38,011 nt of DNA, taken from positions 1 to 38,011 of IMG/VR virus record IMGVR_UViG_2585427747_000001; one strand, given 5' to 3'. The stretch's first letter is position 1; every line of letters begins with the position of its first letter. The notes beneath the pieces are model-generated. The model was given only the letters and a program-made list of their open reading frames with translations. It was not told the DNA's origin and searched no databases. Source of the stretch: a virus (Duplodnaviria > Heunggongvirae > Uroviricota > Caudoviricetes). Shown one piece after another: positions 4,975 through 37,881 of the stretch. The translations under genes were made by a program, and so were the position numbers.

Positions 4975-5667
4975 TTAATTATGTCTCTTAAGGGTTTGCG
5001 ACTGACTGATTAAGACCTTTCCAAAGACCATGAATCGGTGTTCGTTTTCGCTAGTAATTCCCCATTCACGGTAAATCTGGTTATCAGAAATCACCAGCAG
5101 TTTGTCAGGAATCATTTGAAGTCTTTTAACGTATATTTTGTCATCAAAACCAAAGACATATATACCATCACCATCAAACTGATTGATGCTGACATCAACG
5201 AAGATGAGATCTCCTGGCTCAATGGTTGGACACATACTGTCCCCACGAACGTTGATAACTTTGATGTGATTGGCTGGTCGTCCGCCGAACATTGATACAG
5301 CATTATCAGTTCTGTATTCGATGGCATGAATCACATCAATGACATCACCGCCCTGGATAAGGCCATTTCCCGCACTGGCACTGATATCCAGCATTTCAAT
5401 ACGGAACACATCCTTCACCTGCGCAACATCCTCATTATTACTGTTTTTATATACAGTATTACTTTTGTGGGCAGAGGTAAAGAGATCAGCAATATCAACA
5501 CCTAAGCTCTTGGCAATATTACTCAGTGTTTGTTCGGTAAATTGTTTTTGCTTACCCGTTTCTAAGCGCGAGATGTTCGCCGCATCTACTCCTATTGCTT
5601 CAGCGAGATCGGCGATTTTCATGTTCTTCGCTTGGCGAAGTTGTCTGACTCGGTTTCCTATGTTCAT
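4975..5667 (-). CDS. CI-like prophage repressor (N-terminal HTH, C-terminal S24 LexA-type peptidase domain)
   Basis: N-terminal HTH (RVRQLRQAKNMKIADLAEAIGVDAANISRLETGKQ); 230 aa; divergent from a cro-like gene with operators between. Confidence 0.8.
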   Translation of the reverse strand: MNIGNRVRQLRQAKNMKIADLAEAIGVDAANISRLETGKQKQFTEQTLSNIAKSLGVDIADLFTSAHKSNTVYKNSNNEDVAQVKDVFRIEMLDISASAGNGLIQGGDVIDVIHAIEYRTDNAVSMFGGRPANHIKVINVRGDSMCPTIEPGDLIFVDVSINQFDGDGIYVFGFDDKIYVKRLQMIPDKLLVISDNQIYREWGITSENEHRFMVFGKVLISQSQTLKRHN

Positions 5668-5687
5668 GCGTTTATTACATTTCTTTA

Positions 5688-5748
5688 TTGCGTGATAAGC
5701 AAATCAACTTGCGCAAAATAATTGCGTGAAATAACATGCATAACGCGC
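5688..5748. promoter_or_regulatory. Putative OR/PR/PRM region: operator-like sites TTGCGTGATAAGCAA (~5688-5702), the palindrome TTGCGCAA (~5709-5716) and ATGCATAACGCGCAA (~5734-5748) between the divergent repressor and cro genes
   Basis: Shares the TTGCG-N6-GCAA half-site pattern with the tandem sites at 4884-4920; 97-bp divergent intergenic region. Confidence 0.5.
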
Positions 5749-5764
5749 AATATTTGGAGGACAT

Positions 5765-6025
5765 ATGCAATCACCATTACGAAATGTGCGTAAGGCGCAT
5801 GGTTTCACTTTGCAGCATGTTGCTGCGGGTGTTCAAGTCAATCCAGCGACGTTGAGTCGTATTGAGAGGCTGGAGCAGATTCCATCTATCGAGCTTGCAG
5901 AACGTTTAGCCAATTTTTTTAAGGGTGAAGTCAGCGAAATGCAGATTCTTTATCCGGCACGTTTTCAATCTAGCCAAAACCAGAATGGGTTTAAACCACA
6001 GGAACAGGAGGTGAACCGTGGGTAA
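5765..6025 (+). CDS. Cro-like HTH transcriptional regulator (XRE family)
   Basis: HTH (HGFTLQHVAAGVQVNPATLSRIE) at the N-terminus; divergent from the repressor; RBS GGAGG upstream. Confidence 0.75.
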   Translation: MQSPLRNVRKAHGFTLQHVAAGVQVNPATLSRIERLEQIPSIELAERLANFFKGEVSEMQILYPARFQSSQNQNGFKPQEQEVNRG

Positions 6026-6569
6026 GCATCACTGGAAAGTAGAAAAACAGCCTGAGTGGTACGTGAAAGCTGTCAGAAAAACTATCGCAGCGTTGCCGGG
6101 GGGGTACGCTGAAGCTGCTGACTGGCTGGATGTAACAGAGAACGCATTATTTAACCGCCTTCGTGCCGATGGCGATCAGATTTTCCCGCTGGGATGGGCA
6201 ATGATTTTGCAACGTGCTGGTGGAACTCACTTCATTGCTGACGCTGTGGCCCAGTCTGCAAATGGCGTCTTTGTGTCTCTTCCTGATGTCGAGGATGTGG
6301 ACAACGCCGATATCAACCAACGCCTGCTGGAGGTCATTGAACAGATCGGCAGTTATTCAAAACAGATTCGTTCAGCAATTGAAGACGGTGTAGTGGAACC
6401 GCATGAGAAGACAGCAATTAACGACGAGCTGTACCTCTCAATTTCGAAGCTGCAGGAGCATGCAGCACTGGTCTACAAAATTTTTTGCATTTCAGAAAGT
6501 AATGACGCCCGCGAGTGTGCAGCTCCGGGCGCCGTGGCGTGTCGTGACTGTGGAGAAACTAACGCATGA
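6018..6569 (+). CDS. CII-like phage regulatory protein (CP76 family)
   Basis: Position immediately after cro; 183 aa; family assignment from overall resemblance, not a search. Confidence 0.55.
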
Positions 6570-6924: not shown

Positions 6925-7855
6925 ATTAACCGGCTATGTATGGGATGGTTGCGCAGCGTCAGGCATGAAATTATCCAGCGTGGCAATTATGGCACGCCTG
7001 GCTGATTTCAGTAATGACGAAGGTGTGTGCTGGCCATCAATTGAAACCATTGCCCGCCAGATTGGCGCGGGGATGAGTACCGTCAGAACGGCTATCGCAC
7101 GGCTGGAAGCAGAAGGCTGGTTAACGCGTAAGGCGCGTCGCCAGGGTAACCGCAATGCGTCGAATGTTTATCAGCTTAACGTTGCGAAGCTTCAGGCTGC
7201 GGCTTTTTCTCAACTGTCAGATTCTGACCCGTCAAAATCTGACGCATCAAAATCTGACCCGTCAAAATTTGATGCGTCGAAATCTGGCAAAAAAGCGGGT
7301 TTTCACCCGTCAGAATCTGGCGGGGATCCGTCAGTAAAATCAAAACATGATCCGTCAGATAAAAAAACTTCTCGTCCGGACGCTTCGCAACCGGACACGC
7401 AGAAGGCTGAACAGGATTTTTTAACTCGCCATCCTGATGCGGTTGTATTCAGCCCTAAAAAGCGCCAGTGGGGGACGCAGGATGATTTGACCTGCGCACA
7501 GTGGCTCTGGAAAAAAATCATCGCCCTGTACGAGCTGGCTGCCGAATGTGACGGCGAGGTGGTTCGTCCCAAAGAACCGAACTGGACAGCCTGGGCAAAC
7601 GAAATTCGCCTGATGTGTGTGCAGGATGGTCGTACTCACAAACAAATCTGCGAGATGTACAGCCGCGTCAGCCGCGATCCGTTCTGGTGCCGTAACGTGC
7701 TCAGCCCGTCGAAGCTGCGGGAAAAATGGGATGAGCTTTCCCTGCGCTTATCGCCGTCCGTAAGCACGTACACCGAAAAACGCGAAGACCCGTACTTCAA
7801 ATCCAGTTACGACAACGTGGACTACAGCCAGATCCCGGCAGGATTCAGGGGGTGA
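6914..7855 (+). CDS. Replication initiation protein (lambda O-like HTH N-terminus with an internal repeat/linker region)
   Basis: N-terminal winged-helix (VCWPSIETIARQIGAGMSTVRTAIARLEAEGWL); internal DSDPSKSDASKSDPSKFDASKSG repeats encoded by DNA iterons; position after the cII-like gene. Confidence 0.7.
   Translation: MSTKLTGYVWDGCAASGMKLSSVAIMARLADFSNDEGVCWPSIETIARQIGAGMSTVRTAIARLEAEGWLTRKARRQGNRNASNVYQLNVAKLQAAAFSQLSDSDPSKSDASKSDPSKFDASKSGKKAGFHPSESGGDPSVKSKHDPSDKKTSRPDASQPDTQKAEQDFLTRHPDAVVFSPKKRQWGTQDDLTCAQWLWKKIIALYELAAECDGEVVRPKEPNWTAWANEIRLMCVQDGRTHKQICEMYSRVSRDPFWCRNVLSPSKLREKWDELSLRLSPSVSTYTEKREDPYFKSSYDNVDYSQIPAGFRG
7219..7365. repeat. Iteron-like array of ~7 copies of (C)CGTCARAATCTGA, ~15-bp period, inside the replication initiator gene; candidate origin of replication
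   Basis: Read directly: cccgtcaaaatctga / cgcatcaaaatctga / cccgtcaaaatttga / gcgtcgaaatctgg / cccgtcagaatctgg / tccgtcagtaaaatc / tccgtcagataaaaa. Confidence 0.55.
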
Positions 7856-8346
7856 TCATGAGTCTGTTAAATGACGTTCAGAAATTCATTGAAGCCCATC
7901 CGGGGTGTACTTCCGGAGACATTGCGGATGCTTTTGCAGGTTACTCACGGCAGCGCGTTCTGCAGTCAGCAAGCAAGTTACGTCAGAGTGGGCGTGTGGC
8001 TCACCGTTGTGAAGGGGATACACGCAGACATTTCCCGCGCCTGACTGAGAGAGCGCAGGAGCCGGAACCACAACCAGTTCGTGAAACCAGACCTGTGCGC
8101 AATTTCTATGTCGGCACTAACGATCACCGGGTGATTTTGTGCCTGACCCGCCAGGCTGAAGAACTGGAGTCAAGGGGCTTATACCGTCGTGCTGCAACCG
8201 TGTGGATGGCGGCATTCCGTGAAAGCCACTCCCAGCCAGAACGAAACAATTTTCTGGCGCGTCGTGAGCGGTGCTTACGGAAAATCAGCAAGCGCGCTGC
8301 ATCGGGTGAAGAGTGGTATCTGTCAGGGAATTACGTGGGGGCTTAA
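7852..8346 (+). CDS. PerC-like transcriptional regulator (tentative)
   Basis: C-terminal LYRRAATVWMAAFRES resembles the PerC-family signature as recalled; the CDS is well supported but the function is weakly supported. Confidence 0.5.
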   Translation: MIMSLLNDVQKFIEAHPGCTSGDIADAFAGYSRQRVLQSASKLRQSGRVAHRCEGDTRRHFPRLTERAQEPEPQPVRETRPVRNFYVGTNDHRVILCLTRQAEELESRGLYRRAATVWMAAFRESHSQPERNNFLARRERCLRKISKRAASGEEWYLSGNYVGA

Positions 8347-8999
8347 TGAGTAATAAATATTGTCAGGCGCTGGTGGAACTGCGGAACAAACCAGCCCATG
8401 AACTGAAGGAAGTGGGCGATCAGTGGCGCACGCCGGATAACATTTTCTGGGGAATTAACACCCTGTTTGGTCCGTTTGTTCTGGATCTGTTCACTGACGG
8501 TGATAACGCCAAATGTGCTGCGTATTACACGGCGGAAGACAACGCGCTGGCGCATGACTGGTCAGAACGTCTTGCGGAGCTTAAAGGTGCTGCCTTTGGT
8601 AATCCCCCATACAGCCGCGCCAGTCAGCATGAGGGGCAATACATCACCGGCATGCGTTACATCATGAAACATGCCAGTGCTATGCGTGATAAAGGCGGGC
8701 GCTATGTTTTCCTGATCAAAGCTGCCACCAGCGAAGTTTGGTGGCCGGAAGATGCAGACCATATTGCTTTTATTCGCGGGCGTATTGGTTTTGAACTGCC
8801 TGCCTGGTTTATCCCGAAGGATGAGAAGCAGGTGCCGACAGGAGCGTTCTTCGCTGGTGCTATTGCTGTTTTCGACAAGACCTGGAAGGGACCGGCAATC
8901 AGCTACATCGGGCGCGATGAACTTGAGGCATGTGGTGAGGCGTTTCTGGCGCAGGTTCGCCAGCAGGCGGAAAAACTGGTCAGGGAGATGGCGGCATGA
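8346..8999 (+). CDS. Phage DNA N6-adenine methyltransferase
   Basis: Catalytic NPPYS motif (FGNPPYSRA); start trimmed to MSNKYCQ…, whose ATG overlaps the upstream stop (TAATG). Confidence 0.75.
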   Translation: MSNKYCQALVELRNKPAHELKEVGDQWRTPDNIFWGINTLFGPFVLDLFTDGDNAKCAAYYTAEDNALAHDWSERLAELKGAAFGNPPYSRASQHEGQYITGMRYIMKHASAMRDKGGRYVFLIKAATSEVWWPEDADHIAFIRGRIGFELPAWFIPKDEKQVPTGAFFAGAIAVFDKTWKGPAISYIGRDELEACGEAFLAQVRQQAEKLVREMAA

Positions 9000-9322
9000 C
9001 GACGTTAACTCAATGCCAGCAGCAGGTGCTGGATATGCTGATTTCTTACCAGAAAGAACGGGGCTTCCCGCCAACCAATCAGGAGGTGGCAACCATGCTG
9101 GGATATCGTTCGGTGAATGCAGCGGTAGAGCATCTTCGCGCACTGGAGAAAAAAGGCGTCATCACGATAAAGCGTGGCGTGGCCCGGGGGATAACGCTTC
9201 ATACCGCGGTCAAGGACGACGACAGCGAGGCGGTCGGGATTATCCGCGCACTGCTTGCCGGTGAGGAAAACGCCAGGCTGCGTGCGACCCACTGGTTACA
9301 TGAGAGGGGCATGAAAGTATGA
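8996..9322 (+). CDS. Stand-alone LexA N-terminal DNA-binding-domain protein (no peptidase domain)
   Basis: LTQCQQQVLDMLISYQKERGFPPTNQEVATMLGYRSVNAAVEHLRALEKKGVI closely follows the LexA winged-HTH pattern; only 108 aa, so no S24 domain. Confidence 0.65.
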   Translation: MTTLTQCQQQVLDMLISYQKERGFPPTNQEVATMLGYRSVNAAVEHLRALEKKGVITIKRGVARGITLHTAVKDDDSEAVGIIRALLAGEENARLRATHWLHERGMKV

Positions 9323-9708
9323 AGCTGATTCTGCCTTTTCCGCCCAGCGTGAACACGTACTGGCGACACCCCAACAAAGGGGCGTTTGCAGGTAAAAGCC
9401 TGATAAGCGAGGCGGGGCGAAAATTCCAGAGCGCGGCGTGCGCAGCAATAGTTGAGCAGTTACGTCGTCTGCCGAAACCAACGTCGGCACCTGCTTCAGT
9501 GGAGATCGTGTTGTTTCCTCCAGATAACCGGATCCGCGATCTGGACAACTATAACAAGGCTCTGTTTGACGCCCTGACCCACGCGGGTGTGTGGGAAGAC
9601 GACAGTCAGGTGAAAAGAATGCTGGTGGAGTGGGGACCGGTTATCCCGGAAGGGAAGGTCGAGATCACTATCAGTAAGTACGAGAAAACGGCGGGTGCAG
9701 CCGCCTGA
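9319..9708 (+). CDS. rusA: RusA-family Holliday junction resolvase
   Basis: Conserved RusA pattern (PPSVNTYWRH…, …RDLDNYNKALFDALTHAGVWEDDSQV…); 129 aa. Confidence 0.8.
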   Translation: MKLILPFPPSVNTYWRHPNKGAFAGKSLISEAGRKFQSAACAAIVEQLRRLPKPTSAPASVEIVLFPPDNRIRDLDNYNKALFDALTHAGVWEDDSQVKRMLVEWGPVIPEGKVEITISKYEKTAGAAA

Positions 9709-9727
9709 TTAAGAGGAGAAACGAAGT

Positions 9728-10525
9728 ATGAATAATCTGATGGTCATTGATGGTATTGAAGTTCGTCGTGATGCTTATGGTCGTTACAGCCTGAACGATC
9801 TGCACAGGGCTGCCGGTTCTCTGGATAAGCATAAGCCTGCATTCTGGCTCCGCAATGAGCAAACTGAACGTTTAATAAGCGAGTTGCAGATTTGCAACTC
9901 GGTCAATATAGAGCCAGTTAACGTTATTCGTGGCGGAAATAACCAGGGGACGTATGTCTGCAAAGAACTGGTGTATGCCTATGCAATGTGGATCAGCCCG
10001 TCATTCCATCTGAAGGTGATCCGTACTTTCGACATGGTAACCAGCGCACCTGAAAAATTATCCGGACAGGCTGCTGACAAGATGCAGGCTGGCGTGATTC
10101 TGCTGGACTTTATGCGCCGGGAATTAAACCTGTCTAACTCATCAGTGCTTGGTGCCTGTCAGAAACTCCAGGAGGCTGTTGGCTTACCGAATCTGGCACC
10201 GCGCTATGCCATTGATGCTCCTGCTGACGCGCCTGATGGCTCAAGTCGCCCCACGCTGTCGCTGAGTGCACTGCTGAAACAGTATGGTATCCGCCTGACG
10301 GCTAATCAGGCATATCACCAGATGGTGAAGCTGGGGATCGTCGAGCAGCGCGAACGATACAGCCGTACCGCGATTAACAACATCAAAAAATTCTGGTCGC
10401 TGACAGCGAAAGGCTGCATGTTCGGCAAGAACATCACCAGTCCCGCAAATCCGCGCGAGACGCAGCCGCATTTCTTCGAATCCCGATTCCCTGAGCTGTT
10501 AAAGCTGCTCGATACCGTTCATTGA
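9728..10525 (+). CDS. KilA-N domain protein (antirepressor-like)
   Basis: N-terminal KilA-N-like region (IDGIEVRRDAYGRYSLNDLHRAAG…AFWLRNEQTERLISEL). Confidence 0.65.
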   Translation: MNNLMVIDGIEVRRDAYGRYSLNDLHRAAGSLDKHKPAFWLRNEQTERLISELQICNSVNIEPVNVIRGGNNQGTYVCKELVYAYAMWISPSFHLKVIRTFDMVTSAPEKLSGQAADKMQAGVILLDFMRRELNLSNSSVLGACQKLQEAVGLPNLAPRYAIDAPADAPDGSSRPTLSLSALLKQYGIRLTANQAYHQMVKLGIVEQRERYSRTAINNIKKFWSLTAKGCMFGKNITSPANPRETQPHFFESRFPELLKLLDTVH

Positions 10526-10526
10526 G

Positions 10527-11522
10527 GTGACCGTGAGAGCACTACTGACTCCTGAAATTGCCCCGCGTATGGGGATCGTATTGTTCAGGCCAGGTTCAGA
10601 GCTGATGCCCCTGTTTATGCAGGGGCGTGTCCTGCTGGAGCCTGAGCCGGAACGTTATTCATCTTTTGCCAGTGGTGCCGTTCCGGCGGTATCACAACCG
10701 CTGGCGGATGATCCTGCCGTTCGGGGCGTGTTCCGCAATGAGGCAGTGATCCGTCGTGCTGGTGGCGTGGAATGTCTTGAAAGCTGGTTACTTCGTGAAA
10801 AGGGCTGTCAGTGGCCTCATTCCGACTGGCACAGCGAGAACATGACCACAATGCGGCACGCGCCGGGCGCAATCCGTCTGTGCTGGCACTGCGATAACCA
10901 GTTGCGCGATCAGTTCACGGAACGGCTGGAATCAATGGCAACGGATAACTGTGCCCGCTGGGTATTGTCTGTTGTGCGTCGGGATCTCGGTTTTGATGAC
11001 AGTCACGTTGTGACAATGCCGGAACTGTGCTGGTGGCTGGTTCGTAATGACCTGGCGGATGCCTTACCGGAAAGTGCAGCCCGTAAGGCACTGAGATTAC
11101 CGAAGCCTGTTGTGCCGTCTGTCACCCGGGAAAGTGACCTTGTGCCTTCGGTTCCTGCCACCAGCATCATCCAGGATAAGGCGAAAAAGGTGCTGGCGCT
11201 GAAAGTGGATCCGGAGTCGCCGGAGTCTTTTATGTTACGCCCAAAACGTCGCCGCTGGGTTAATGAAAAGTACACGCGCTGGGTTAAGACACAGCCGTGT
11301 GCATGTTGTGGAAAGCCTGCTGATGATCCCCACCACCTGATAGGCCACGGTCAGGGTGGGATGGGTACAAAAGCGCATGACCTCTTTGTGTTGCCTTTGT
11401 GCAGAAAGCATCACGACGAGCTGCATGCGGATACCGTGGCATTTGAAGAGAAGTATGGCTCCCAGCTGGAGCTGATATTTCGTTTTATCGATCGTGCGCT
11501 GGCAATTGGCGTGCTGGCCTGA
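10527..11522 (+). CDS. DUF968-family prophage protein with a C-terminal Cys/His (HNH-like) cluster
   Basis: C-terminus CACCGKPADDPHHLIGHGQGG…LPLCRKHHDELH; typical position before Q in lambdoid prophages. Confidence 0.6.
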   Translation: MTVRALLTPEIAPRMGIVLFRPGSELMPLFMQGRVLLEPEPERYSSFASGAVPAVSQPLADDPAVRGVFRNEAVIRRAGGVECLESWLLREKGCQWPHSDWHSENMTTMRHAPGAIRLCWHCDNQLRDQFTERLESMATDNCARWVLSVVRRDLGFDDSHVVTMPELCWWLVRNDLADALPESAARKALRLPKPVVPSVTRESDLVPSVPATSIIQDKAKKVLALKVDPESPESFMLRPKRRRWVNEKYTRWVKTQPCACCGKPADDPHHLIGHGQGGMGTKAHDLFVLPLCRKHHDELHADTVAFEEKYGSQLELIFRFIDRALAIGVLA

Positions 11523-11539
11523 TTTTGTGGAGAAAGTTG

Positions 11540-11890
11540 ATGCGTGATATGTATGAAGTATTGGACCGCTGGGGAGCATGGGCTGCAGCAGATAACAGTG
11601 GCGTGGACTGGCAGCCGATAGCAGCAGGCTTCAAGGGGCTTTTACCTCATGGCAAAAAGTCACGGATTCAGTGTGATGATGACGAAGGCATTATGATAGA
11701 CAGTTGTGTGGCTCGGTTGAGAAGGTATAAACCAGAGGAATATGAGCTCATCATAGCCCACTTTGTTATTGGTATCTCATTACGCACTATTGCCAAAAAG
11801 AGAAGGTGTTCAGATGGCACGATTAGAAAGGAATTGCAAACTGCAATTGGTTTTGTAGAGGGTATTACGAGCGTTATTGCATGTAAATAA
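11540..11890 (+). CDS. Late-gene antiterminator Q (QuuD-type)
   Basis: MRDMYEVLDRWGAWAAADNSGVDWQPIAAGFKGLL… closely parallels QuuD-type Q proteins; start trimmed to the internal Met. Confidence 0.75.
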   Translation: MRDMYEVLDRWGAWAAADNSGVDWQPIAAGFKGLLPHGKKSRIQCDDDEGIMIDSCVARLRRYKPEEYELIIAHFVIGISLRTIAKKRRCSDGTIRKELQTAIGFVEGITSVIACK

Positions 11891-11892
11891 AA

Positions 11893-11925
11893 GTTAAAAG
11901 CCACCGTAGTGGCTTTTAACTTTTT
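11893..11925. terminator. Strong hairpin (12-bp stem gttaaaagccac/gtggcttttaac, cgta loop) plus T-run just after the Q stop; candidate bidirectional terminator
   Basis: Read directly from the sequence. Confidence 0.65.
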
Positions 11926-12096
11926 AGGATTGTGCAGGTAATGTTTTGTTCAATTTAGTAAAGAAGTTAGATTGGCTTGTTACAGTACGTCGACTCTTTC
12001 CAGAAGTACTCAACTGAAAGAAATCATTGATGCTTTTGGGTTGAGTTCTTTCATAGGCTTGCTTAAGTGACATGTGTTCCCCTTGTCTATTTGTTG

Positions 12097-13380
12097 CTAT
12101 GACCGTGAAAAGTAGTGATGGTTCAGTTCTTTTGCAAAATAGTGCTTACGTTTAACCCAGATAAAACCATCAGCTTTAGAAATGATTGCAACATCTATGG
12201 GGCCTCCCACTGTTTCAGTATCATCGGAGACCTTGCGCTTGAAAGCGGTTAAATTTACTAATGATTCAGCCATATAAGCTAAATCTTGCTTGGGTAAAAA
12301 CTCGATCATATTTACGACTTTGTCAACATAGTTTTCTCGGACAAAGCTATCAATACGCCCCTTGCAATCGGAAACAGTCCTGCGCACTACATCAACTATA
12401 GCATCCTTGGCTCCTTCGATATCTGAAGTGGGCACCAAATCTGTGATTACTGAATCAATACCATCAAGTAAATCGCCGATAGAACGTTGATACTCAGCAT
12501 GAAGATTTTGGATAAGATGTGAACTAGCTCCTTGCATGAAAGCAGAAACTTCATCCTCTTGCGCAAAGGGAGTCACTCCGCAATTAGGAGTGATGCAGCA
12601 CTTGTCAGCATCTGTGGTTTTCCTGATTTTATCATTAAAGAAGCCACAAACTTCATATGATAATACTTTAGGGTAATAGTCTTTATCGCCATAACCTGCA
12701 ATCACAATCCCAGAGACGGAACCAATATCACTTTGCTTGCATATCATAGCTGCCAATACATCACTAACTGCTTTTGTCAACTGTGGAGTTATGGATATTG
12801 AATCAAAGTCACTAAACTTTTGAGCAATGATGCGTTGGGTAACTGATGAAGCATAGGTTTGGGCTGCTTGTTCATCATCCGGAGTAAAACCATCAAAGTA
12901 ATTAATATCAGATAATTTTGTAAGGAGATCGTTGCAATAATTCGTGAGGTCTGTAACAAATTGATTCTTATCGAAGTTAACGAAATATGTTGGTTCGAGA
13001 CCTTCAGAAAAAGCATCAACAAGCATGCTGAATACAATCTCGCTCAGGAAGTGATAAAGATGAGCCTCACGCATACCTGGTGTGATGATTGATTTAGCCG
13101 ACTGTAGATAATTGAAGAAATCCTCAGCATATTCCTCCAAAGAGTCAAAACATTTAGAGCCTAAATCCTTTCTATAAGCCTTAATGATAAGCTCCCATGG
13201 AGCTGTGCAGAGATCACCAGTTCCATATACCATCAAACCTACAGGATGATGTTTAGTTAGAGCGAAAAGCTTTTCAGCGCCATTATAGATTTTATGTTTG
13301 CCGCCTCCAGAAATCGTTACAGCTGAATCTGCGGCTAAAGCTACTGCGGTCTTGTTAAATACGGCTATTTCTGCTGTCAT
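12097..13380 (-). CDS. Proteasome/HslV-like Ntn-hydrolase-domain protein (427 aa); AT-rich accessory gene in the Q-to-lysis slot
   Basis: N-terminus MTAEIAVFNKTAVALAADSAVTIS…VGLMVYGTGD mirrors HslV (Thr after the initiator Met, Asp at mature position 17, downstream Lys); C-terminal GGPIDVAIISKADGFIWV resembles the proteasome beta C-terminal strand; opposite strand to its neighbours; visibly low GC. Confidence 0.6.
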   Translation of the reverse strand: MTAEIAVFNKTAVALAADSAVTISGGGKHKIYNGAEKLFALTKHHPVGLMVYGTGDLCTAPWELIIKAYRKDLGSKCFDSLEEYAEDFFNYLQSAKSIITPGMREAHLYHFLSEIVFSMLVDAFSEGLEPTYFVNFDKNQFVTDLTNYCNDLLTKLSDINYFDGFTPDDEQAAQTYASSVTQRIIAQKFSDFDSISITPQLTKAVSDVLAAMICKQSDIGSVSGIVIAGYGDKDYYPKVLSYEVCGFFNDKIRKTTDADKCCITPNCGVTPFAQEDEVSAFMQGASSHLIQNLHAEYQRSIGDLLDGIDSVITDLVPTSDIEGAKDAIVDVVRRTVSDCKGRIDSFVRENYVDKVVNMIEFLPKQDLAYMAESLVNLTAFKRKVSDDTETVGGPIDVAIISKADGFIWVKRKHYFAKELNHHYFSRS

Positions 13381-28228: not shown

Positions 28229-28675
28229 TTACTGTGCGAACACGCAATTTCGGCCTGATGGGGAGCCGACAATTCTGGACATTTTTTCGCAAATAACAGT
28301 TACTTGTTCTCCTTTTTTAAGAGCAGCAGCTGTTGATTTTTCAGAGTCTTGCATCTCCATTCTTGCTGGCATGAATTCATTTTCAGTTCTGAATTTAATA
28401 ATTATAGAGTCAGTAAAGTCCTTATCAATGGATTGTACGATACCTCTAACGGCGATTAATTTACCTTTTAACTGTTCATCGGTAGCGACTTCATTTTCTT
28501 CATACTCTTTAAACAGCTGTCGAGCAGTAGTGTTGTAGATTTCTTTTTGCGGTGCCGCAGCTTCCGTATCGGATGAGTATGAAGAATTAGAGCCTTTATC
28601 GTTATTGCCTGCAAAATATCCAATAATCACCAACCCGATGAAAATATATAAAATCCATTTTAATAATTTCTTCAT
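28229..28675 (-). CDS. Membrane-anchored/secreted OB-fold-like protein; AT-rich accessory gene inside the tail module
   Basis: N-terminal signal/TM (MKKLLKWILYIFIGLVIIGYFAG), no lipobox Cys; the mature region resembles small periplasmic OB-fold proteins; opposite strand to all neighbours; AT-rich. Confidence 0.55.
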   Translation of the reverse strand: MKKLLKWILYIFIGLVIIGYFAGNNDKGSNSSYSSDTEAAAPQKEIYNTTARQLFKEYEENEVATDEQLKGKLIAVRGIVQSIDKDFTDSIIIKFRTENEFMPARMEMQDSEKSTAAALKKGEQVTVICEKMSRIVGSPSGRNCVFAQ

Positions 28676-35412: not shown

Positions 35413-36537
35413 TTAAGATATTCTTTTAGCTATAGAATGACCTATATTTATAAACGGTTTTTCTATTACGTTATATATCAAGTAAGATAGGCTTATAGAA
35501 ATTATGAGCGATGATATATAAATGGCAAACGATCTATGTTCAGTGCTAACACCAATGCTGGAACCGTAAAACTCAATAAACTGTATAACAGGAACATGAA
35601 TCAGATAAAGTGAATATGATATTCCACCAAGAGCAACAAGTGATTTATTGAATGAAATAACTTTATTATTTTCTAGAATAATAACACATAAAACAATCAG
35701 AAATGCAATATATGCAGATCGCGTCAAACCATGTCCTTCAGACACCCCATTAAGCCAAAAAACAAACATCATTCCTAGAATGAAAACGCATAAACTATTT
35801 ATAATAGCATTATTCATTCTTTTATGCCTAAGTAAAGGCATTGTCTCTGATATAATCATCCCTAAAATGAAATCATATACTATAGGGTTGCCTATGAATC
35901 CTATATGAGAAAACACTCCTGTTTTTGCAATATTGAATGATTGGGCGTCAATTACTACCGAGTGGTTAAAGTAAAGAGAAATAATTGTACTTACAGCAAC
36001 TAGAAAACATGATGTGATTAATACCCTGTATTTTATACTTAATGACATGGATATTGCGAAAATAAAATAAAAATATATCTCGTACCCAAGTGACCATGAA
36101 ACAATTAGTGTTCCCCACCCATAATATGGCGGTAGAGTTGAGCCATCTAAAGGGATGAGAAGAAATGATTTTATAATATTATTTATAGAAAAAACACCAC
36201 CCCATGATACGCCTGTGTAAATATTGTGGTAAAAAAGAAAAACATAAACGCTTAATACTATTGCGTAAACAGGATAAATTCTAAAAAATCTCTTTACAAG
36301 AAATGAAGCGGTATTTCTTAAAGATGTTTTCGCTAAGTTTTTAGTTGAGTATGATATTATAAATCCGCTTATTATAAAAAACAATTCAACTCCAAATATA
36401 GCATTCGCGGTTATCCTGTCCATGAAAGAACCAGGATCTACTTGCCCGAAAAGACCTCTATTATGACCAATAGCTACAGCAAGAGCTGCAATTCCACGAA
36501 GCGCTTCTATTCCGTATAATTTATCTGTTTTCATCAA
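35413..36537 (-). CDS. Acyltransferase family 3 integral membrane protein (O-antigen acetylase-like lysogenic conversion gene)
   Basis: 374 aa, ~10 predicted TM segments; N-terminal YGIEALRGIAALAVAIGH motif typical of the OafA/Oac acyltransferase-3 family; very AT-rich; next to the integrase at attR. Confidence 0.75.
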   Translation of the reverse strand: MMKTDKLYGIEALRGIAALAVAIGHNRGLFGQVDPGSFMDRITANAIFGVELFFIISGFIISYSTKNLAKTSLRNTASFLVKRFFRIYPVYAIVLSVYVFLFYHNIYTGVSWGGVFSINNIIKSFLLIPLDGSTLPPYYGWGTLIVSWSLGYEIYFYFIFAISMSLSIKYRVLITSCFLVAVSTIISLYFNHSVVIDAQSFNIAKTGVFSHIGFIGNPIVYDFILGMIISETMPLLRHKRMNNAIINSLCVFILGMMFVFWLNGVSEGHGLTRSAYIAFLIVLCVIILENNKVISFNKSLVALGGISYSLYLIHVPVIQFIEFYGSSIGVSTEHRSFAIYISSLIISISLSYLIYNVIEKPFINIGHSIAKRIS

Positions 36538-36677: not shown

Positions 36678-37835
36678 CTATGATACCTTCTCCTCAAGCC
36701 AGTCCGCCCACCACTGCATCATTTCTCTGCGCTTATCGAGATACTGAGCATGGTTGTAAATACCGCGCACAGATCCGCCGTTGGCATGTGCCAGCTGCAC
36801 TTCAATAGCGTCAGCAGGCCATTCGTGCTCGTTCATAATCGTGCTGAATTCATGCCTGAATCCGTGACCGCTTTCCAGACCTTCATAGCCGATTTGTTTG
36901 ATCACAAGCAATACCGCGTTCTCGCAGATTGGCTTCTTCTTATCGTTGCGCCCGGCAAAAACAAACTCTGAGACTGGTTTGGTGATTGAGCTTAGCGTAG
37001 TGAGAAGTTCAACCACCTGGTCTGACATCGGGACCACATGAATTTTGCGTCCCTTCATCACACTGGCGTCGATGGTGATAATCCTGTTTTCAAAATCGAC
37101 GTTCTTCCATAGCATGGAACGAAGCTCTTTCGTTCTTAGGGCTGTATAACGTAAAACTTTTGTCGCAATGAGCGATACGATACTTCCTGAAAATGTTGCC
37201 AGTGCTTTGTTGAATGCAGGCATCTGGTCTGCTGGAAGGAACGGGAAGTTCTTCTTGCGGTATCCTTTCATGGCGTCTGCAAGGTCAGGTGCCGGGTTAT
37301 ATTTAGCCCTTCCGGTGACAATAGCGTAACGAAAAACCTCGCCGCATCTTCTGCGGGCTTTGTTGGCTCGCTCCATTGCACCGCGATCTTCAAATCTGCG
37401 GATTACTTCCAGCAGTTGCATCGGCTCAATATCCTGAATCTCAAGACCGCCGATGATGGGTAAAATGTCGTCATCAAACATTTTGGCAAGTTCAGTTGCA
37501 TAGCCTACTGACCAGACTTGCTTCTTGTGCTCGTACCATTCCTTGTAAATCGCACTAAATGAATTGTTGTTAGACGAAGCCTTTTTCGCCTTTACCGGAT
37601 CGATGCCAACCGAGATGTCTTTCCTCGCAGTCCATGCCTTATCCCTTGCTTCCTGCAAAGTCATAAGCGGATATTTTCCGACAGTCAGGATTTTCTCCTT
37701 ACCGTCAATCTTGTAGCGAAGCTGCCATACCTTTTTCCCTGATACAGGGACATAAAGGTACAGGCCATTACCATCGAGTAGGCGGTATGGTTTTTCTTTC
37801 GGCTTTGCTGCTTCAATCTGCTTAACGGTGAGCAT
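36678..37835 (-). CDS. intS: Tyrosine integrase (P4-type), IntS-like
   Basis: Start trimmed to MLTVKQIEAAKPKEK…; C-terminal catalytic region (…HGFRHEF…LAHANGGSVRGIYNH…Y); adjacent to attR and the tRNA 3' end. Confidence 0.85.
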   Translation of the reverse strand: MLTVKQIEAAKPKEKPYRLLDGNGLYLYVPVSGKKVWQLRYKIDGKEKILTVGKYPLMTLQEARDKAWTARKDISVGIDPVKAKKASSNNNSFSAIYKEWYEHKKQVWSVGYATELAKMFDDDILPIIGGLEIQDIEPMQLLEVIRRFEDRGAMERANKARRRCGEVFRYAIVTGRAKYNPAPDLADAMKGYRKKNFPFLPADQMPAFNKALATFSGSIVSLIATKVLRYTALRTKELRSMLWKNVDFENRIITIDASVMKGRKIHVVPMSDQVVELLTTLSSITKPVSEFVFAGRNDKKKPICENAVLLVIKQIGYEGLESGHGFRHEFSTIMNEHEWPADAIEVQLAHANGGSVRGIYNHAQYLDKRREMMQWWADWLEEKVS

Positions 37836-37881
37836 GGGTAAAAATCCGGTGGGTAAAATTATTTTATCCACTTTTTACCCG
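37836..37881. promoter_or_regulatory. Three TTTTACCC motifs (two on the minus strand, one on the plus strand) over the intS start/promoter in the attR arm
   Basis: gggtaaaa at ~37836-37843 and ~37851-37858, ttttaccc at ~37873-37880; shared with the attL arm. Confidence 0.4.

Follow-up and report, generated by a model that had tools for sequence, protein, structure and literature searches.

A widespread stand-alone LexA-type DNA-binding protein encoded in the early-right region of enterobacterial prophages

The LexA-like gene and its neighbours

At positions 8996..9322 (plus strand) of the 38,011-nt stretch of viral DNA analyzed here (the window), an ORF with an ATG start encodes a 108-aa protein, and the ORF itself, Pfam, PHROG 362 and the pN/pS ratio identified it as the gene of a stand-alone LexA-type DNA-binding protein (the LexA-like gene). 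It is flanked on the same strand by genes for a phage Dam N6-adenine methyltransferase on the 5' side (8346..8999; Pfam Dam, E = 9.7e-46) and a RusA Holliday-junction resolvase on the 3' side (9319..9708; Pfam RusA, E = 4.9e-15). Both junctions are ATGA overlaps, with the start codon of the LexA-like gene overlapping the TGA stop of dam and the start codon of rusA overlapping the TGA stop of the LexA-like gene. A Shine-Dalgarno-like GGGAG could be read at 8983..8987 (plus strand), within the end of the Dam gene and 8 nt upstream of the LexA-like ATG. The Q gene lies 2.2 kb downstream.

The window also carries a gene for a cleavable repressor on the minus strand (4975..5667), whose product has Cro/C1 HTH and Peptidase_S24 domains in Pfam and whose DNA is 99.6% identical to that of SfII cI. 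The presence of this repressor in the prophage rules out the LexA-like protein as the one responsible for immunity. A consensus scan of the sequence between the cI/cro divergent region and the LexA-like gene found no promoter- or terminator-like site, and no promoter belonging to the LexA-like gene itself was found by such scanning. The gene has its place in the early-right operon, and its product is probably made after induction. With this position, expression is expected only once the prophage CI, with its HTH and S24 domains, has been inactivated, which fits a role in shaping post-induction events and argues against the proposal, made in an earlier note on this DNA, that the prophage uses the protein to tune its own induction.

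The usual module runs PerC, Dam, LexA-like gene, RusA, KilA/ANT, DUF968 and Q in the early-right (nin-like) region, between the replication genes and Q. This position is shared by the window, SfII, mEp460, 569R4, Ayreon, PhiR29, SfIV, Stx2a_1447, Kati, and the Cronobacter and Salmonella homologues, and in homologues down to 45% identity the gene still had a methylase (Dam or another) on one side and RusA on the other, with translational coupling. No Dam gene adjoins the LexA-like gene in Ayreon and SfIV, nor does either Dam or RusA in the Klebsiella version. In Klebsiella prophages, a dinI-like gene with a perfect SOS box in its promoter precedes the homologue by ~350 nt, which places the homologue among SOS modulators.

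The LexA-like gene represents a widespread, previously annotated family and is no oddity of one prophage. Residues 1–108 matched the PHROG 362 profile over positions 1–106 of 106 (E = 1.5e-59), and the gene is named elsewhere "LexA family transcriptional regulator", which is also the name of PHROG 362, or "LexA DNA binding domain protein". A survey of Stx phages catalogues the protein as "LexA family transcriptional regulator, pfam01726", pham 237 (PMC8136144), and this catalogue entry was all that full-text literature searches yielded, with no functional study of the enterobacterial protein found. A role as a defence-system component was dropped, PADLOC returning one marginal winged-helix match (CARF3, E = 3.6e-4). 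E. coli K-12 may lack the LexA-like gene, its CPS-53 remnant stopping near a Dam fragment, which would partly explain the absence of study.

A LexA-type head and a C-terminal hairpin

Residues 1–68 (8996..9199, plus strand) form a winged helix-turn-helix, delimited by the AlphaFold model (pLDDT ~90 in this region), Foldseek, LexA alignments and pN/pS. In the model, which had a mean pLDDT of 85.6 over the protein, the head consists of helices 6–22, 28–35 and 40–52 and wing strands 56–58 and 66–68. The Pfam family LexA_DNA_bind (PF01726) matched residues 1–65 over all of its 65 profile positions (E = 2.9e-19, 69.1 bits, cutoff 23.7), and the top sequence matches among solved structures were all LexA (1lea with E = 6e-16, then 3jso and 1jhh). 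Foldseek superposed the model on DNA-bound E. coli LexA (3jso) with an rmsd of 1.0 Å over 68 columns at 50% identity. These results confirmed the earlier reading, made from the letters alone, that the protein follows the N-terminal winged helix of LexA. Profile matches to DnaD_N and to PHROG 678 ("replication initiation O-like") were weak, far under cutoff, and can be put down to the generic winged-helix fold. Stand-alone LexA DNA-binding-domain proteins are also frequent in unrelated viruses, among them Tectiviridae, mycobacteriophage Wildcat and uncultured Caudovirales.

The DNA contacts of LexA, as listed in PMC13416735, PMC4807011 and PMC5999292, which cite the LexA–DNA structure study (PMID 20703307 / PMC2921665), are mostly retained. 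In alignments with E. coli LexA, contact residues S39, N41, A42, E45 and K53 are identical in the phage protein and R52 is replaced by Lys, so the suggested likeness of the DNA-reading surface holds for the greater part; E44, which is Val in the phage protein, is where it fails. P40 of LexA is likewise Val. In the wider family, position 45 varies, with Glu in E. coli and Salmonella, Asp in Cronobacter and Atlantibacter, Leu in Klebsiella, and Thr or Ala in others. Since all these hosts use the same SOS box, the variation at this position indicates that the family, taken together, is not tied to the canonical LexA half-site. For the LexA-like protein, the residues of the head make RecA-independent occupancy of SOS boxes plausible.

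The autoprotease of LexA is missing. Pfam found no Peptidase_S24 in the LexA-like protein, whose chain ends at residue 108, and the full-length lexA equivalog TIGR00498 was matched at profile positions 1–91 of 203, scoring 70.5 bits and thus below its cutoff of 110.95 bits. In this respect the earlier description of a stand-alone LexA domain was right; it overlooked a conserved hairpin at residues 75–103, which the protein carries in addition to its DNA-binding domain. The head is joined to this hairpin by an acidic flexible linker, HTAVKDD (residues 69–75; 9200..9220, plus strand), with pLDDT below 50 at residues 71–75 and a length that differs among homologues. The hairpin (9218..9304, plus strand) was modelled with pLDDT ~91 as two helices, residues 75–88 and 93–103. 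After a hydrophobic helix, it bears the motif A93-x3-A97-x3-L101, in which A97 and L101 are invariant and A93 nearly so among 20 sequences down to 39% identity; the pattern recurs in 37 further sequences, and the tail is retained in homologues of 41–58% identity. Foldseek matches were confined to the winged helix, leaving the tail without a structural match, and a Pfam search of the tail even to E ≤ 10 gave no known family, the NIL and GA-like matches being sub-threshold (E 0.02–0.1). The hairpin is likely a substitute for the dimerizing C-terminal domain of LexA, and we propose that it serves as a dimerization or partner-binding module.

In the HMMER alignment, which covers LexA residues 2–86, residues 78–90 of the phage protein fall on the LexA cleavage-site stretch (LLAGE versus VAAGE), with A88-G89 on A84-G85 in a protein that has no protease domain. 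AlphaFold models this region as a helix with no extended cleavage loop, and close homologues show A-K, V-G and A-N instead of A-G. A functional trans-cleavage site at Ala-Gly was rejected as a conserved feature because the dipeptide varies among close homologues.

Distribution, selection and SOS boxes

The LexA-like gene was present in ~41% of complete E. coli genomes (2233/5426), and its carriers include the phages SfII, SfV, SfIV, mEp460 and cdtI and Stx2a/Stx2c phages. Homologues of 41–58% identity in five other genera keep both head and tail. The 91 loci comprised 54 distinct nucleotide alleles, every one of which was intact, in register and 108 aa long. The pN/pS ratio over the 54 alleles was 0.068 for the whole gene, 0.0026 for residues 1–68 and 0.16 for the tail, showing that the gene is under very strong purifying selection, strongest on the head; intact alleles and low pN/pS together indicate that the ORF is no chance reading frame. 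The carriers differ in immunity region, Q type and virion modules, and the DNA-binding domain is nearly frozen throughout, which argues for an invariant target such as the SOS boxes of the host.

The search of the prophage for SOS boxes, suggested in the earlier note, turned up a single near-consensus site, TACTGTTTTTATATACAGTA, at 5439..5458, an exact CTGT-N8-ACAG located inside the cI-like ORF in the linker between HTH and S24. Scored with a position weight matrix built from operator sequences, it reached 27.7, on a par with the best E. coli operators and against 10.8 for the next site, making it the only strong SOS box of the 38,011-nt window. The box recurs in the cI genes of SfII, Stx2a_1447 and mEp460. 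The site makes a candidate target for host LexA and perhaps for the LexA-like protein as well. The consensus scan gave no promoter at the box, and manual reading yielded a weak TTTACC-17-TACTGT on the cI strand. As no convincing promoter was present, the idea that the box drives production of a cI protein consisting of the C-terminal domain only was dropped.

SOS boxes scoring at least 20 numbered 62 in 882 kb around the gene, compared to 0 in shuffled controls, and the strong phage boxes fell at three recurrent places, namely inside cI, at a methylase start and upstream of KilA-N. In about 40% of the loci, no SOS box lay closer than 6 kb to the LexA-like gene, indicating that there is no obligatory phage-borne target. 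All 13 phage records with the box-bearing cI allele also had the LexA-like gene, and the two occurred together in 19/20 informative viral contigs; of gene-bearing phage records, only 13/50 had that cI allele. The association of gene and box may be plain physical linkage within one mosaic module. Other operator designs were not enriched: CTGT-Nk-ACAG and ACAG-Nk-CTGT with k = 0–20 did not exceed shuffles, and inverted repeats within 7800–12100 included nothing LexA-like or conserved, the sole perfect one being a terminator-like hairpin after Q.

Relatives and possible roles of the LexA-like protein

Compared to E. coli LexA (P0A7C2; 1lea, 1jhh, 3jso), the phage protein is ~50% identical over its first 68 residues, which superpose at 1.0 Å, and the similarity continues through the linker to the cleavage-site Ala-Gly-Glu. 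It lacks the S24 domain and with it the Ser119/Lys156 dyad, autocleavage stimulated by RecA* and the LexA-type dimer interface, and its helical tail is unrelated to the LexA C-terminal domain. Its domain content is that of the N-terminal cleavage fragment of LexA (residues 1–84), from which it differs in being translated directly from its own gene and in bearing the extra conserved hairpin. On its own, the LexA fragment still binds operators weakly. In E. coli, ClpXP removes this fragment once cleavage has occurred (Neher et al. 2003, as cited in PMC6590174).

The closest characterized relative of the LexA-like protein is gp6 of the Bacillus phage GIL01, a truncated LexA homologue that binds GaCACAnnTGTGaC rather than the LexA box and activates a late promoter (Fornelos et al. 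2018; PMC6182141); sites of the gp6 type are non-SOS palindromes that overlap the −35 of the late promoter. Both are phage-encoded LexA winged helices without the S24 autoprotease and products of early operons, and both share their phage genome with binding sites for host LexA; being made from the early operon, gp6 is insensitive to RecA. The relationship is distant. A tblastn search of 50,697 phage records with the LexA-like protein (E ≤ 1e-3) found enterobacterial phages and a few others and no Bacillus tectivirus, and the LexA-domain proteins of Tectiviridae share only fold-level similarity with it. Unlike the LexA-like protein, gp6 has no C-terminal hairpin, and its recognition helix has diverged, with K38 being critical; its specificity is altered, whereas the LexA-like protein keeps S39, N41, A42 and E45 together with a conserved tail. 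Moreover, gp6 is an activator in a tectivirus without a repressor of its own, while the LexA-like protein is found in lambdoid phages that have CI and Q.

The reading that we tentatively prefer, at somewhat less than even chances, is that the LexA-like protein acts as a surrogate of LexA, insensitive to RecA, and re-occupies SOS-type operators. The early-right promoter would drive the gene along with cro, cII, O, Dam and RusA, so that the protein would appear only after CI inactivation or infection. The hairpin would take over the dimerization role of the LexA C-terminal domain and bring two heads to a palindrome, and the dimer, with its LexA-like reading head, would bind CTGT-type, SOS-box-like operators. 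Because RecA* could not cleave it, it would re-repress LexA-controlled promoters once host LexA has been destroyed. Its targets would be the host SOS regulon and phage-borne SOS boxes, including that within cI, and SOS functions would be damped or shut off during lytic growth. The LexA fold, kept contact residues, missing S24 domain, frozen head and ATGA-coupled early operon favour this surrogate, as do the SOS-box-rich carrier phages, the co-occurrence of the gene with the box-bearing cI allele, the dinI-like neighbour in Klebsiella, the weak operator binding kept by the isolated LexA fragment, the lack of an alternative palindrome and the lack of enrichment of any other CTGT/ACAG spacing. 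The change of E44 to Val, the variability of position 45 across the family, the loci without a nearby SOS box, the possible physical linkage behind the cI association, and the activation of a non-SOS site by gp6, the only characterized phage homologue of the LexA N-terminal domain, count against it.

If gp6 is the better guide, the head has been retargeted to a non-SOS phage operator and the protein is a transcription factor timing a middle or late promoter, which we regard as rather unlikely. GIL01 gp6 is a precedent, an early-operon truncated LexA homologue acting through GaCACAnnTGTGaC on late transcription at promoter P3, and the Val at position 44, the differences between subfamilies at recognition-helix position 45 and the frequency of stand-alone LexA DNA-binding domains in unrelated viruses agree with such retargeting. 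Late control in lambdoid phages is, however, already served by Q, and the window subfamily retains S39, N41, A42 and E45; gp6 itself is too diverged for tblastn at E ≤ 1e-3. Since the immunity and Q/late regions vary while the head is invariant, a phage-borne target would need to sit within the small conserved module, and neither a conserved palindrome nor another CTGT spacing was found in the module or window. The fixed position, with Dam or some other methylase on one side and RusA on the other and with translational coupling even in homologues of 45% identity, could alternatively reflect an accessory, non-transcriptional role in the replication, recombination and methylation block (O, Dam, RusA, DUF968-HNH), with structural or site-specific binding to the origin, hemimethylated DNA or junctions. 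We consider this improbable, given the phages without adjoining Dam (Ayreon, SfIV) or without Dam and RusA (Klebsiella version) and the retention of LexA-specific reading-head residues, for which a structural DNA binder has no need. The DnaD_N and PHROG 678 matches point in the direction of replication, but at far below cutoff they reflect the generic winged-helix fold.

The tail could also be the active part. LexA homology continues across the cleavage site as far as about residue 90, Ala88-Gly89 falling on Ala84-Gly85, and the tail, which is conserved without belonging to a known fold family and keeps the cleavage-site-like LLAGE segment, might bind host LexA, RecA* or phage CI and alter their cleavage or DNA binding, making the protein a decoy or co-factor rather than an autonomous repressor. 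GIL01 gp7 is a precedent for a small phage protein acting on LexA. We give this modulator little credence, as Ala-Gly is not kept in the family, the region is predicted to be helical rather than an extended loop, and constraint is strongest on the head, not on the tail (0.0026 versus 0.16). That the gene is a functionless, decaying remnant of a captured host lexA has almost no probability left. The protein does resemble LexA cut off just past the cleavage site, and some database entries are frameshifted or fused; nevertheless, 91/91 loci are intact at 108 aa with a pN/pS of 0.068, synteny and translational coupling are conserved, and the homologues of the five other genera retain head and tail, so that the selection analysis effectively refutes a pseudogene.

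A LexA surrogate would join several known down-modulators of SOS from phages and plasmids, namely GIL01 gp7 (PMC6182141), AriS of a Listeria phage (PMC9043618) and plasmid PsiB (PMC6590174). Like these and the DinI-like prophage proteins, it would let a mobile element damp or reshape the host SOS response; they act by protein–protein contacts on RecA or LexA, whereas the LexA-like protein would occupy the operators directly. In its furthest form, which we think unlikely, a dimerizing uncleavable LexA stand-in would shut the host SOS regulon, including the LexA-controlled antirepressors of rival prophages, colicins and toxins, and would block cI re-synthesis via the SOS box in cI, all during lytic growth, making it a widespread, unrecognized brake on SOS-dependent prophage cross-induction and toxin output.

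If another site is bound, the LexA-like protein is one more small phage regulator. If it does bind SOS boxes, a large proportion of the lysogens of E. coli, Shigella, Salmonella, Klebsiella and Cronobacter would carry an induction-triggered, RecA-proof LexA surrogate. Such a protein could alter the duration and strength of the SOS response in induced cells, as well as mutagenesis, and could affect co-resident prophages with LexA-controlled antirepressors and the release of Shiga toxin from carrier Stx2a/Stx2c phages. It would also represent a second evolutionary fate for a captured LexA head, in which specificity is retained, in contrast to the retargeted activator gp6.

A LexA winged helix followed by a helical hairpin

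The LexA-like gene (8996-9322, plus strand; ATG start, 108 codons, TGA stop) had been described in the earlier note as encoding a LexA N-terminal winged helix without the S24 peptidase, and this description was borne out. The Pfam LexA_DNA_bind profile aligned over positions 1-65 of 65 to residues 1-65 of the product (E=2.9e-19, 69 bits, cutoff 23.7), while the full-length lexA equivalog TIGR00498 was matched only over profile positions 1-91 of 203 (70.5 bits, cutoff 110.95). An S24 peptidase domain was tested for and is absent from the 108-aa protein, which, together with the missed equivalog cutoff, places it outside strict LexA. The top solved structures by sequence were all LexA (1lea, E=6e-16, followed by 1jhh and 3jso). 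In an AlphaFold2 model built from a 20-sequence family alignment (mean pLDDT 85.6), the first 68 residues superposed on DNA-bound E. coli LexA (3jso) with 1.0 Å rmsd and 50% identity.

The model consists of the LexA winged helix (helices 6-22, 28-35, and 40-52; wing strands 56-58 and 66-68), a disordered acidic linker (residues 71-75 at pLDDT <50), two confident tail helices (75-88 and 93-103, pLDDT about 91), and a short C-terminal end. With this roughly 30-residue helical hairpin, the protein is more than a bare DNA-binding domain. The tail is kept in homologues of 39-58% identity from Cronobacter, Salmonella, Klebsiella, Atlantibacter, Enterobacter, and Citrobacter, with A97 and L101 invariant and A93 nearly invariant. 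Searches with the tail gave no Pfam match at thresholds up to E<=10 and no match among solved or viral structures. Since the HMMER alignment to LexA extends to residue 90 and places Ala88-Gly89-Glu90 on the cleavage site Ala84-Gly85-Glu86, the gene looks like a captured lexA that was severed just past the cleavage site. The Ala-Gly pair is replaced by A-K, V-G, or A-N in close relatives, and was set aside as a functional site because of this variation.

In E. coli LexA, the DNA-binding residues are S39, N41, A42, E44, and E45 (PMC13416735), with N41 making a water-mediated contact with operator position 15 (PMC5999292), and R52 and K53 at the end of helix 3 were reported to be important (PMC4807011). 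The protein of the window has S39, N41, A42, V44, E45, K52, and K53, as well as R64 and G65 in the wing. The conservation of contact residues, which the earlier note had proposed to check, thus held for most positions (five of seven identical and one conservative) and failed at one (E44V). This pattern supports a putative LexA-like reading for the window's subfamily. S39, N41, and A42 are also retained in the wider family. Position 45, by contrast, varies: the E. coli and Salmonella groups have E, Cronobacter and Atlantibacter have D, the Klebsiella group of 130-aa proteins has L, and another group has T or A, so the family as a whole is not tied to the canonical half-site.

Selection was analyzed across 91 loci, comprising the window, E. 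coli and phage records, and 80 IMG/VR contigs. These contained 54 distinct nucleotide alleles, all with intact 108-codon frames, and the whole-gene pN/pS was 0.068 (pN 0.0067, pS 0.099). For residues 1-68, pN/pS was 0.0026, with one amino-acid change across the entire set, and for residues 69-108 it was 0.16. The winged-helix head is essentially frozen, although it is carried by very different phages.

Distribution, genomic position, and timing

The LexA-like gene was found in 2233 of 5426 complete E. coli genomes (>=90% nucleotide identity), in up to four copies. It is also carried by 50 phage records, including SfII, SfIV, SfV (orf42), mEp460, cdtI, Ayreon, Kati, 1720a-02, phiSTEC1575-Stx2k, Stx2a_1447, Stx2a_WGPS2, and fifteen Stx2c phages. 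The protein is a member of PHROG 362 (full-length match, E=1.5e-59), a database-named enterobacterial prophage family for which our literature search returned catalogue mentions only (e.g. pham 237, PMC8136144). The gene is already annotated as well as widespread: record labels include 'LexA family transcriptional regulator', 'LexA DNA binding domain protein', 'LexA-like protein', and 'transcriptional repressor', and some records mislabel it 'SOS-response repressor and protease LexA'.

In the window, a minus-strand cI (HTH and S24, 4975-5667) is followed in order by cro, a CII-like gene (Phage_CP76), an ORF without known function, and O-like and PerC-like genes, and then by Dam, the LexA-like gene, RusA, KilA-N, DUF968/HNH, and Q (Pfam-confirmed). 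The immunity region shares 99.6% identity with its counterpart in Shigella phage SfII, and gene order is identical around the Cronobacter and Salmonella homologues (50-58% identity). The Dam stop overlaps the LexA-like ATG, and the RusA ATG overlaps the LexA-like stop (ATGA in both cases); a GGGAG precedes the LexA-like start by 8 nt. A consensus scan identified no promoter-like site ahead of the gene and no plus-strand terminator-like site from the cro region to position 10951. From this arrangement we infer a delayed-early gene of the rightward operon, whose product would be made after CI inactivation or infection and not in the quiescent lysogen. Such timing is the main argument against a part for the protein in tuning induction of its own prophage, as the earlier note suggested; this role seems unlikely given the position in the rightward operon and the ordinary cleavable CI already serving that purpose.

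Elsewhere in the window, an excisionase-like ORF at the left end (96-296, minus) and the integrase and Acyl_transf_3 (O-antigen acyltransferase-like) genes at the right end (35413-36537 and 36678-37871, both minus) point to an apparently nearly complete, circularly permuted SfII-like serotype-converting phage genome; IMG/VR contig L011 (38,666 bases) codes for an identical protein. A perfect 16-bp inverted repeat (AAAAGTTAAAAGCCAC/GTGGCTTTTAACTTTT, 11889-11924) directly past the Q stop codon is probably a bidirectional terminator between Q and a convergent 427-aa ORF (12097-13380, minus), which occupies a moron position in the gap between Q and the lysis genes and had no match in Pfam or PADLOC. 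Within the tail gene cluster, an opposite-strand gene (28229-28675, minus) that encodes a tRNA_anti-like (OB-fold) protein of 148 aa is probably another moron.

SOS boxes in the window and related phages

A search of the prophage for SOS boxes, as the earlier note had proposed, yielded a single near-consensus site. CTGT-N8-ACAG occurs exactly once in the window, in the extended form TACTGTTTTTATATACAGTA (5439-5458), within the HTH-S24 linker of the cI ORF, where it encodes SNTVYKNSN. On a PWM built from E. coli operators, on which absolute scores are approximate, this box scored 27.7, equal to the best chromosomal operators, and the next match in the window scored 10.8. The box is also present with at most one base change in cI of SfII, Stx2a_1447, and mEp460, although these cI genes are only about 92% identical. 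No convincing promoter overlapping it was found; the box could act as a LexA roadblock on cI transcription or have another role. The LexA-like gene accompanies this cI allele in all 13 full-length phage records that have the allele and in 19 of 20 IMG/VR contigs that have it together with enough flanking DNA; conversely, just 13 of the 50 gene-bearing phage records have the allele. The two loci lie 3-5 kb apart in one mosaic module, and linkage alone could explain their association.

Around the LexA-like gene in 80 viral contigs (882 kb), 62 boxes scored >=20, compared to none in shuffled sequence. Three sites recurred: within cI, in the rusA/KilA-N gap (e.g. SfIV), and 8 nt into the late-region N6/N4 methylase gene. 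About 40% of loci had no SOS box within 6 kb of the LexA-like gene. The methylase box, TACTGTAAAAATAAACAGTG, is conserved but absent from the window; it lies downstream of Q in many related phages (L003 41021-41040, L004 12739, L005 41489, L006 16597, L009 15934, and L097 10310, in the coordinates of those loci) and in about 27 of the 80 IMG/VR loci, with Stx2a and Stx2c phages among the carriers. Its position suggests LexA control of the methylase in lysogens. The SfIV-type box, TACTGTATTTATGAACAGT(A/G), is located between the rusA position and the KilA-N gene, just downstream of the LexA-like gene (L008 12765-12784 in SfIV, and about 10 IMG/VR loci with the box at +764 relative to the gene start). 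This may mark the KilA-N or antirepressor-like gene as SOS-inducible; at this place the window has only a 20-nt gap and no box.

In Klebsiella prophages, about 350 nt separate a dinI-like gene from a LexA-like homologue downstream of it, and a perfect SOS box, TACTGTTTATTTATACAGTA, overlaps the -10 of the dinI-like promoter (L091-L093, 5385-5404; genes 5425-6393). The Klebsiella LexA-like gene may itself be SOS-induced along with DinI. This 130-aa homologue has an N-terminal extension, and its recognition helix (SSSNAVLLH) has lost E44 and E45. Judged by these candidate boxes, the phage group appears closely wired to host LexA, with no constant phage-borne companion site.

Possible targets and roles

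The protein belongs with phage-encoded stand-alone LexA DNA-binding-domain proteins. Fold comparison shows such proteins to be common in viral proteomes, among them those of Tectiviridae, mycobacteriophage Wildcat, and uncultured Caudovirales. The single characterised one, and thus the precedent here, is gp6 of Bacillus phage GIL01, a truncated LexA homologue that binds a non-SOS palindrome and activates a late promoter (PMC6182141). Compared to gp6, the protein studied here retains the LexA base-contact residues and has a conserved hairpin, and its phages already possess CI and Q; no sequence relationship beyond the shared domain was detectable. An all-against-all protein search also revealed tandem LexA-type winged helices in one chain (P0132, P0133, and P0148), pseudo-dimers that represent another route to doing without the LexA C-terminal dimerisation domain.

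On its own, the LexA N-terminal fragment retains weak operator binding, and ClpXP reportedly removes this fragment after cleavage, a result ascribed to Neher et al. (2003, cited in PMC6590174). We tentatively consider it possible that the hairpin serves as a dimerisation module in place of the LexA C-terminal domain; the resulting dimer would target CTGT-type palindromes and, as RecA* could not cleave it, would re-occupy LexA operators once host LexA is gone. That the head hardly changes between phages with differing immunity, Q, and virion modules is in keeping with an invariant target, of which host SOS boxes would be an example, and no alternative conserved non-SOS palindrome was found around the gene. 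The main rival, a LexA-derived head retargeted to a non-SOS palindrome as in gp6, is favored by the variable position 45 of the family, and we regard it as somewhat unlikely. A structural or replication-recombination DNA binder is improbable, and a protein-protein modulator working through the tail is more improbable still. A dead remnant is effectively excluded by the 54 intact alleles, the low whole-gene pN/pS, and a head frozen across differing phages.

Mobile-element proteins that damp the SOS response are well known, including GIL01 gp7 (PMC6182141), PsiB (PMC6590174), and Listeria AriS (PMC9043618). The idea of a function at SOS boxes seems reasonable. Its fuller form, a RecA-proof LexA surrogate that would shut off the SOS response and, via the intragenic box, cI expression, is unlikely; if true, about 41% of complete E. 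coli genomes, as well as Stx2 phages, would carry such a surrogate.
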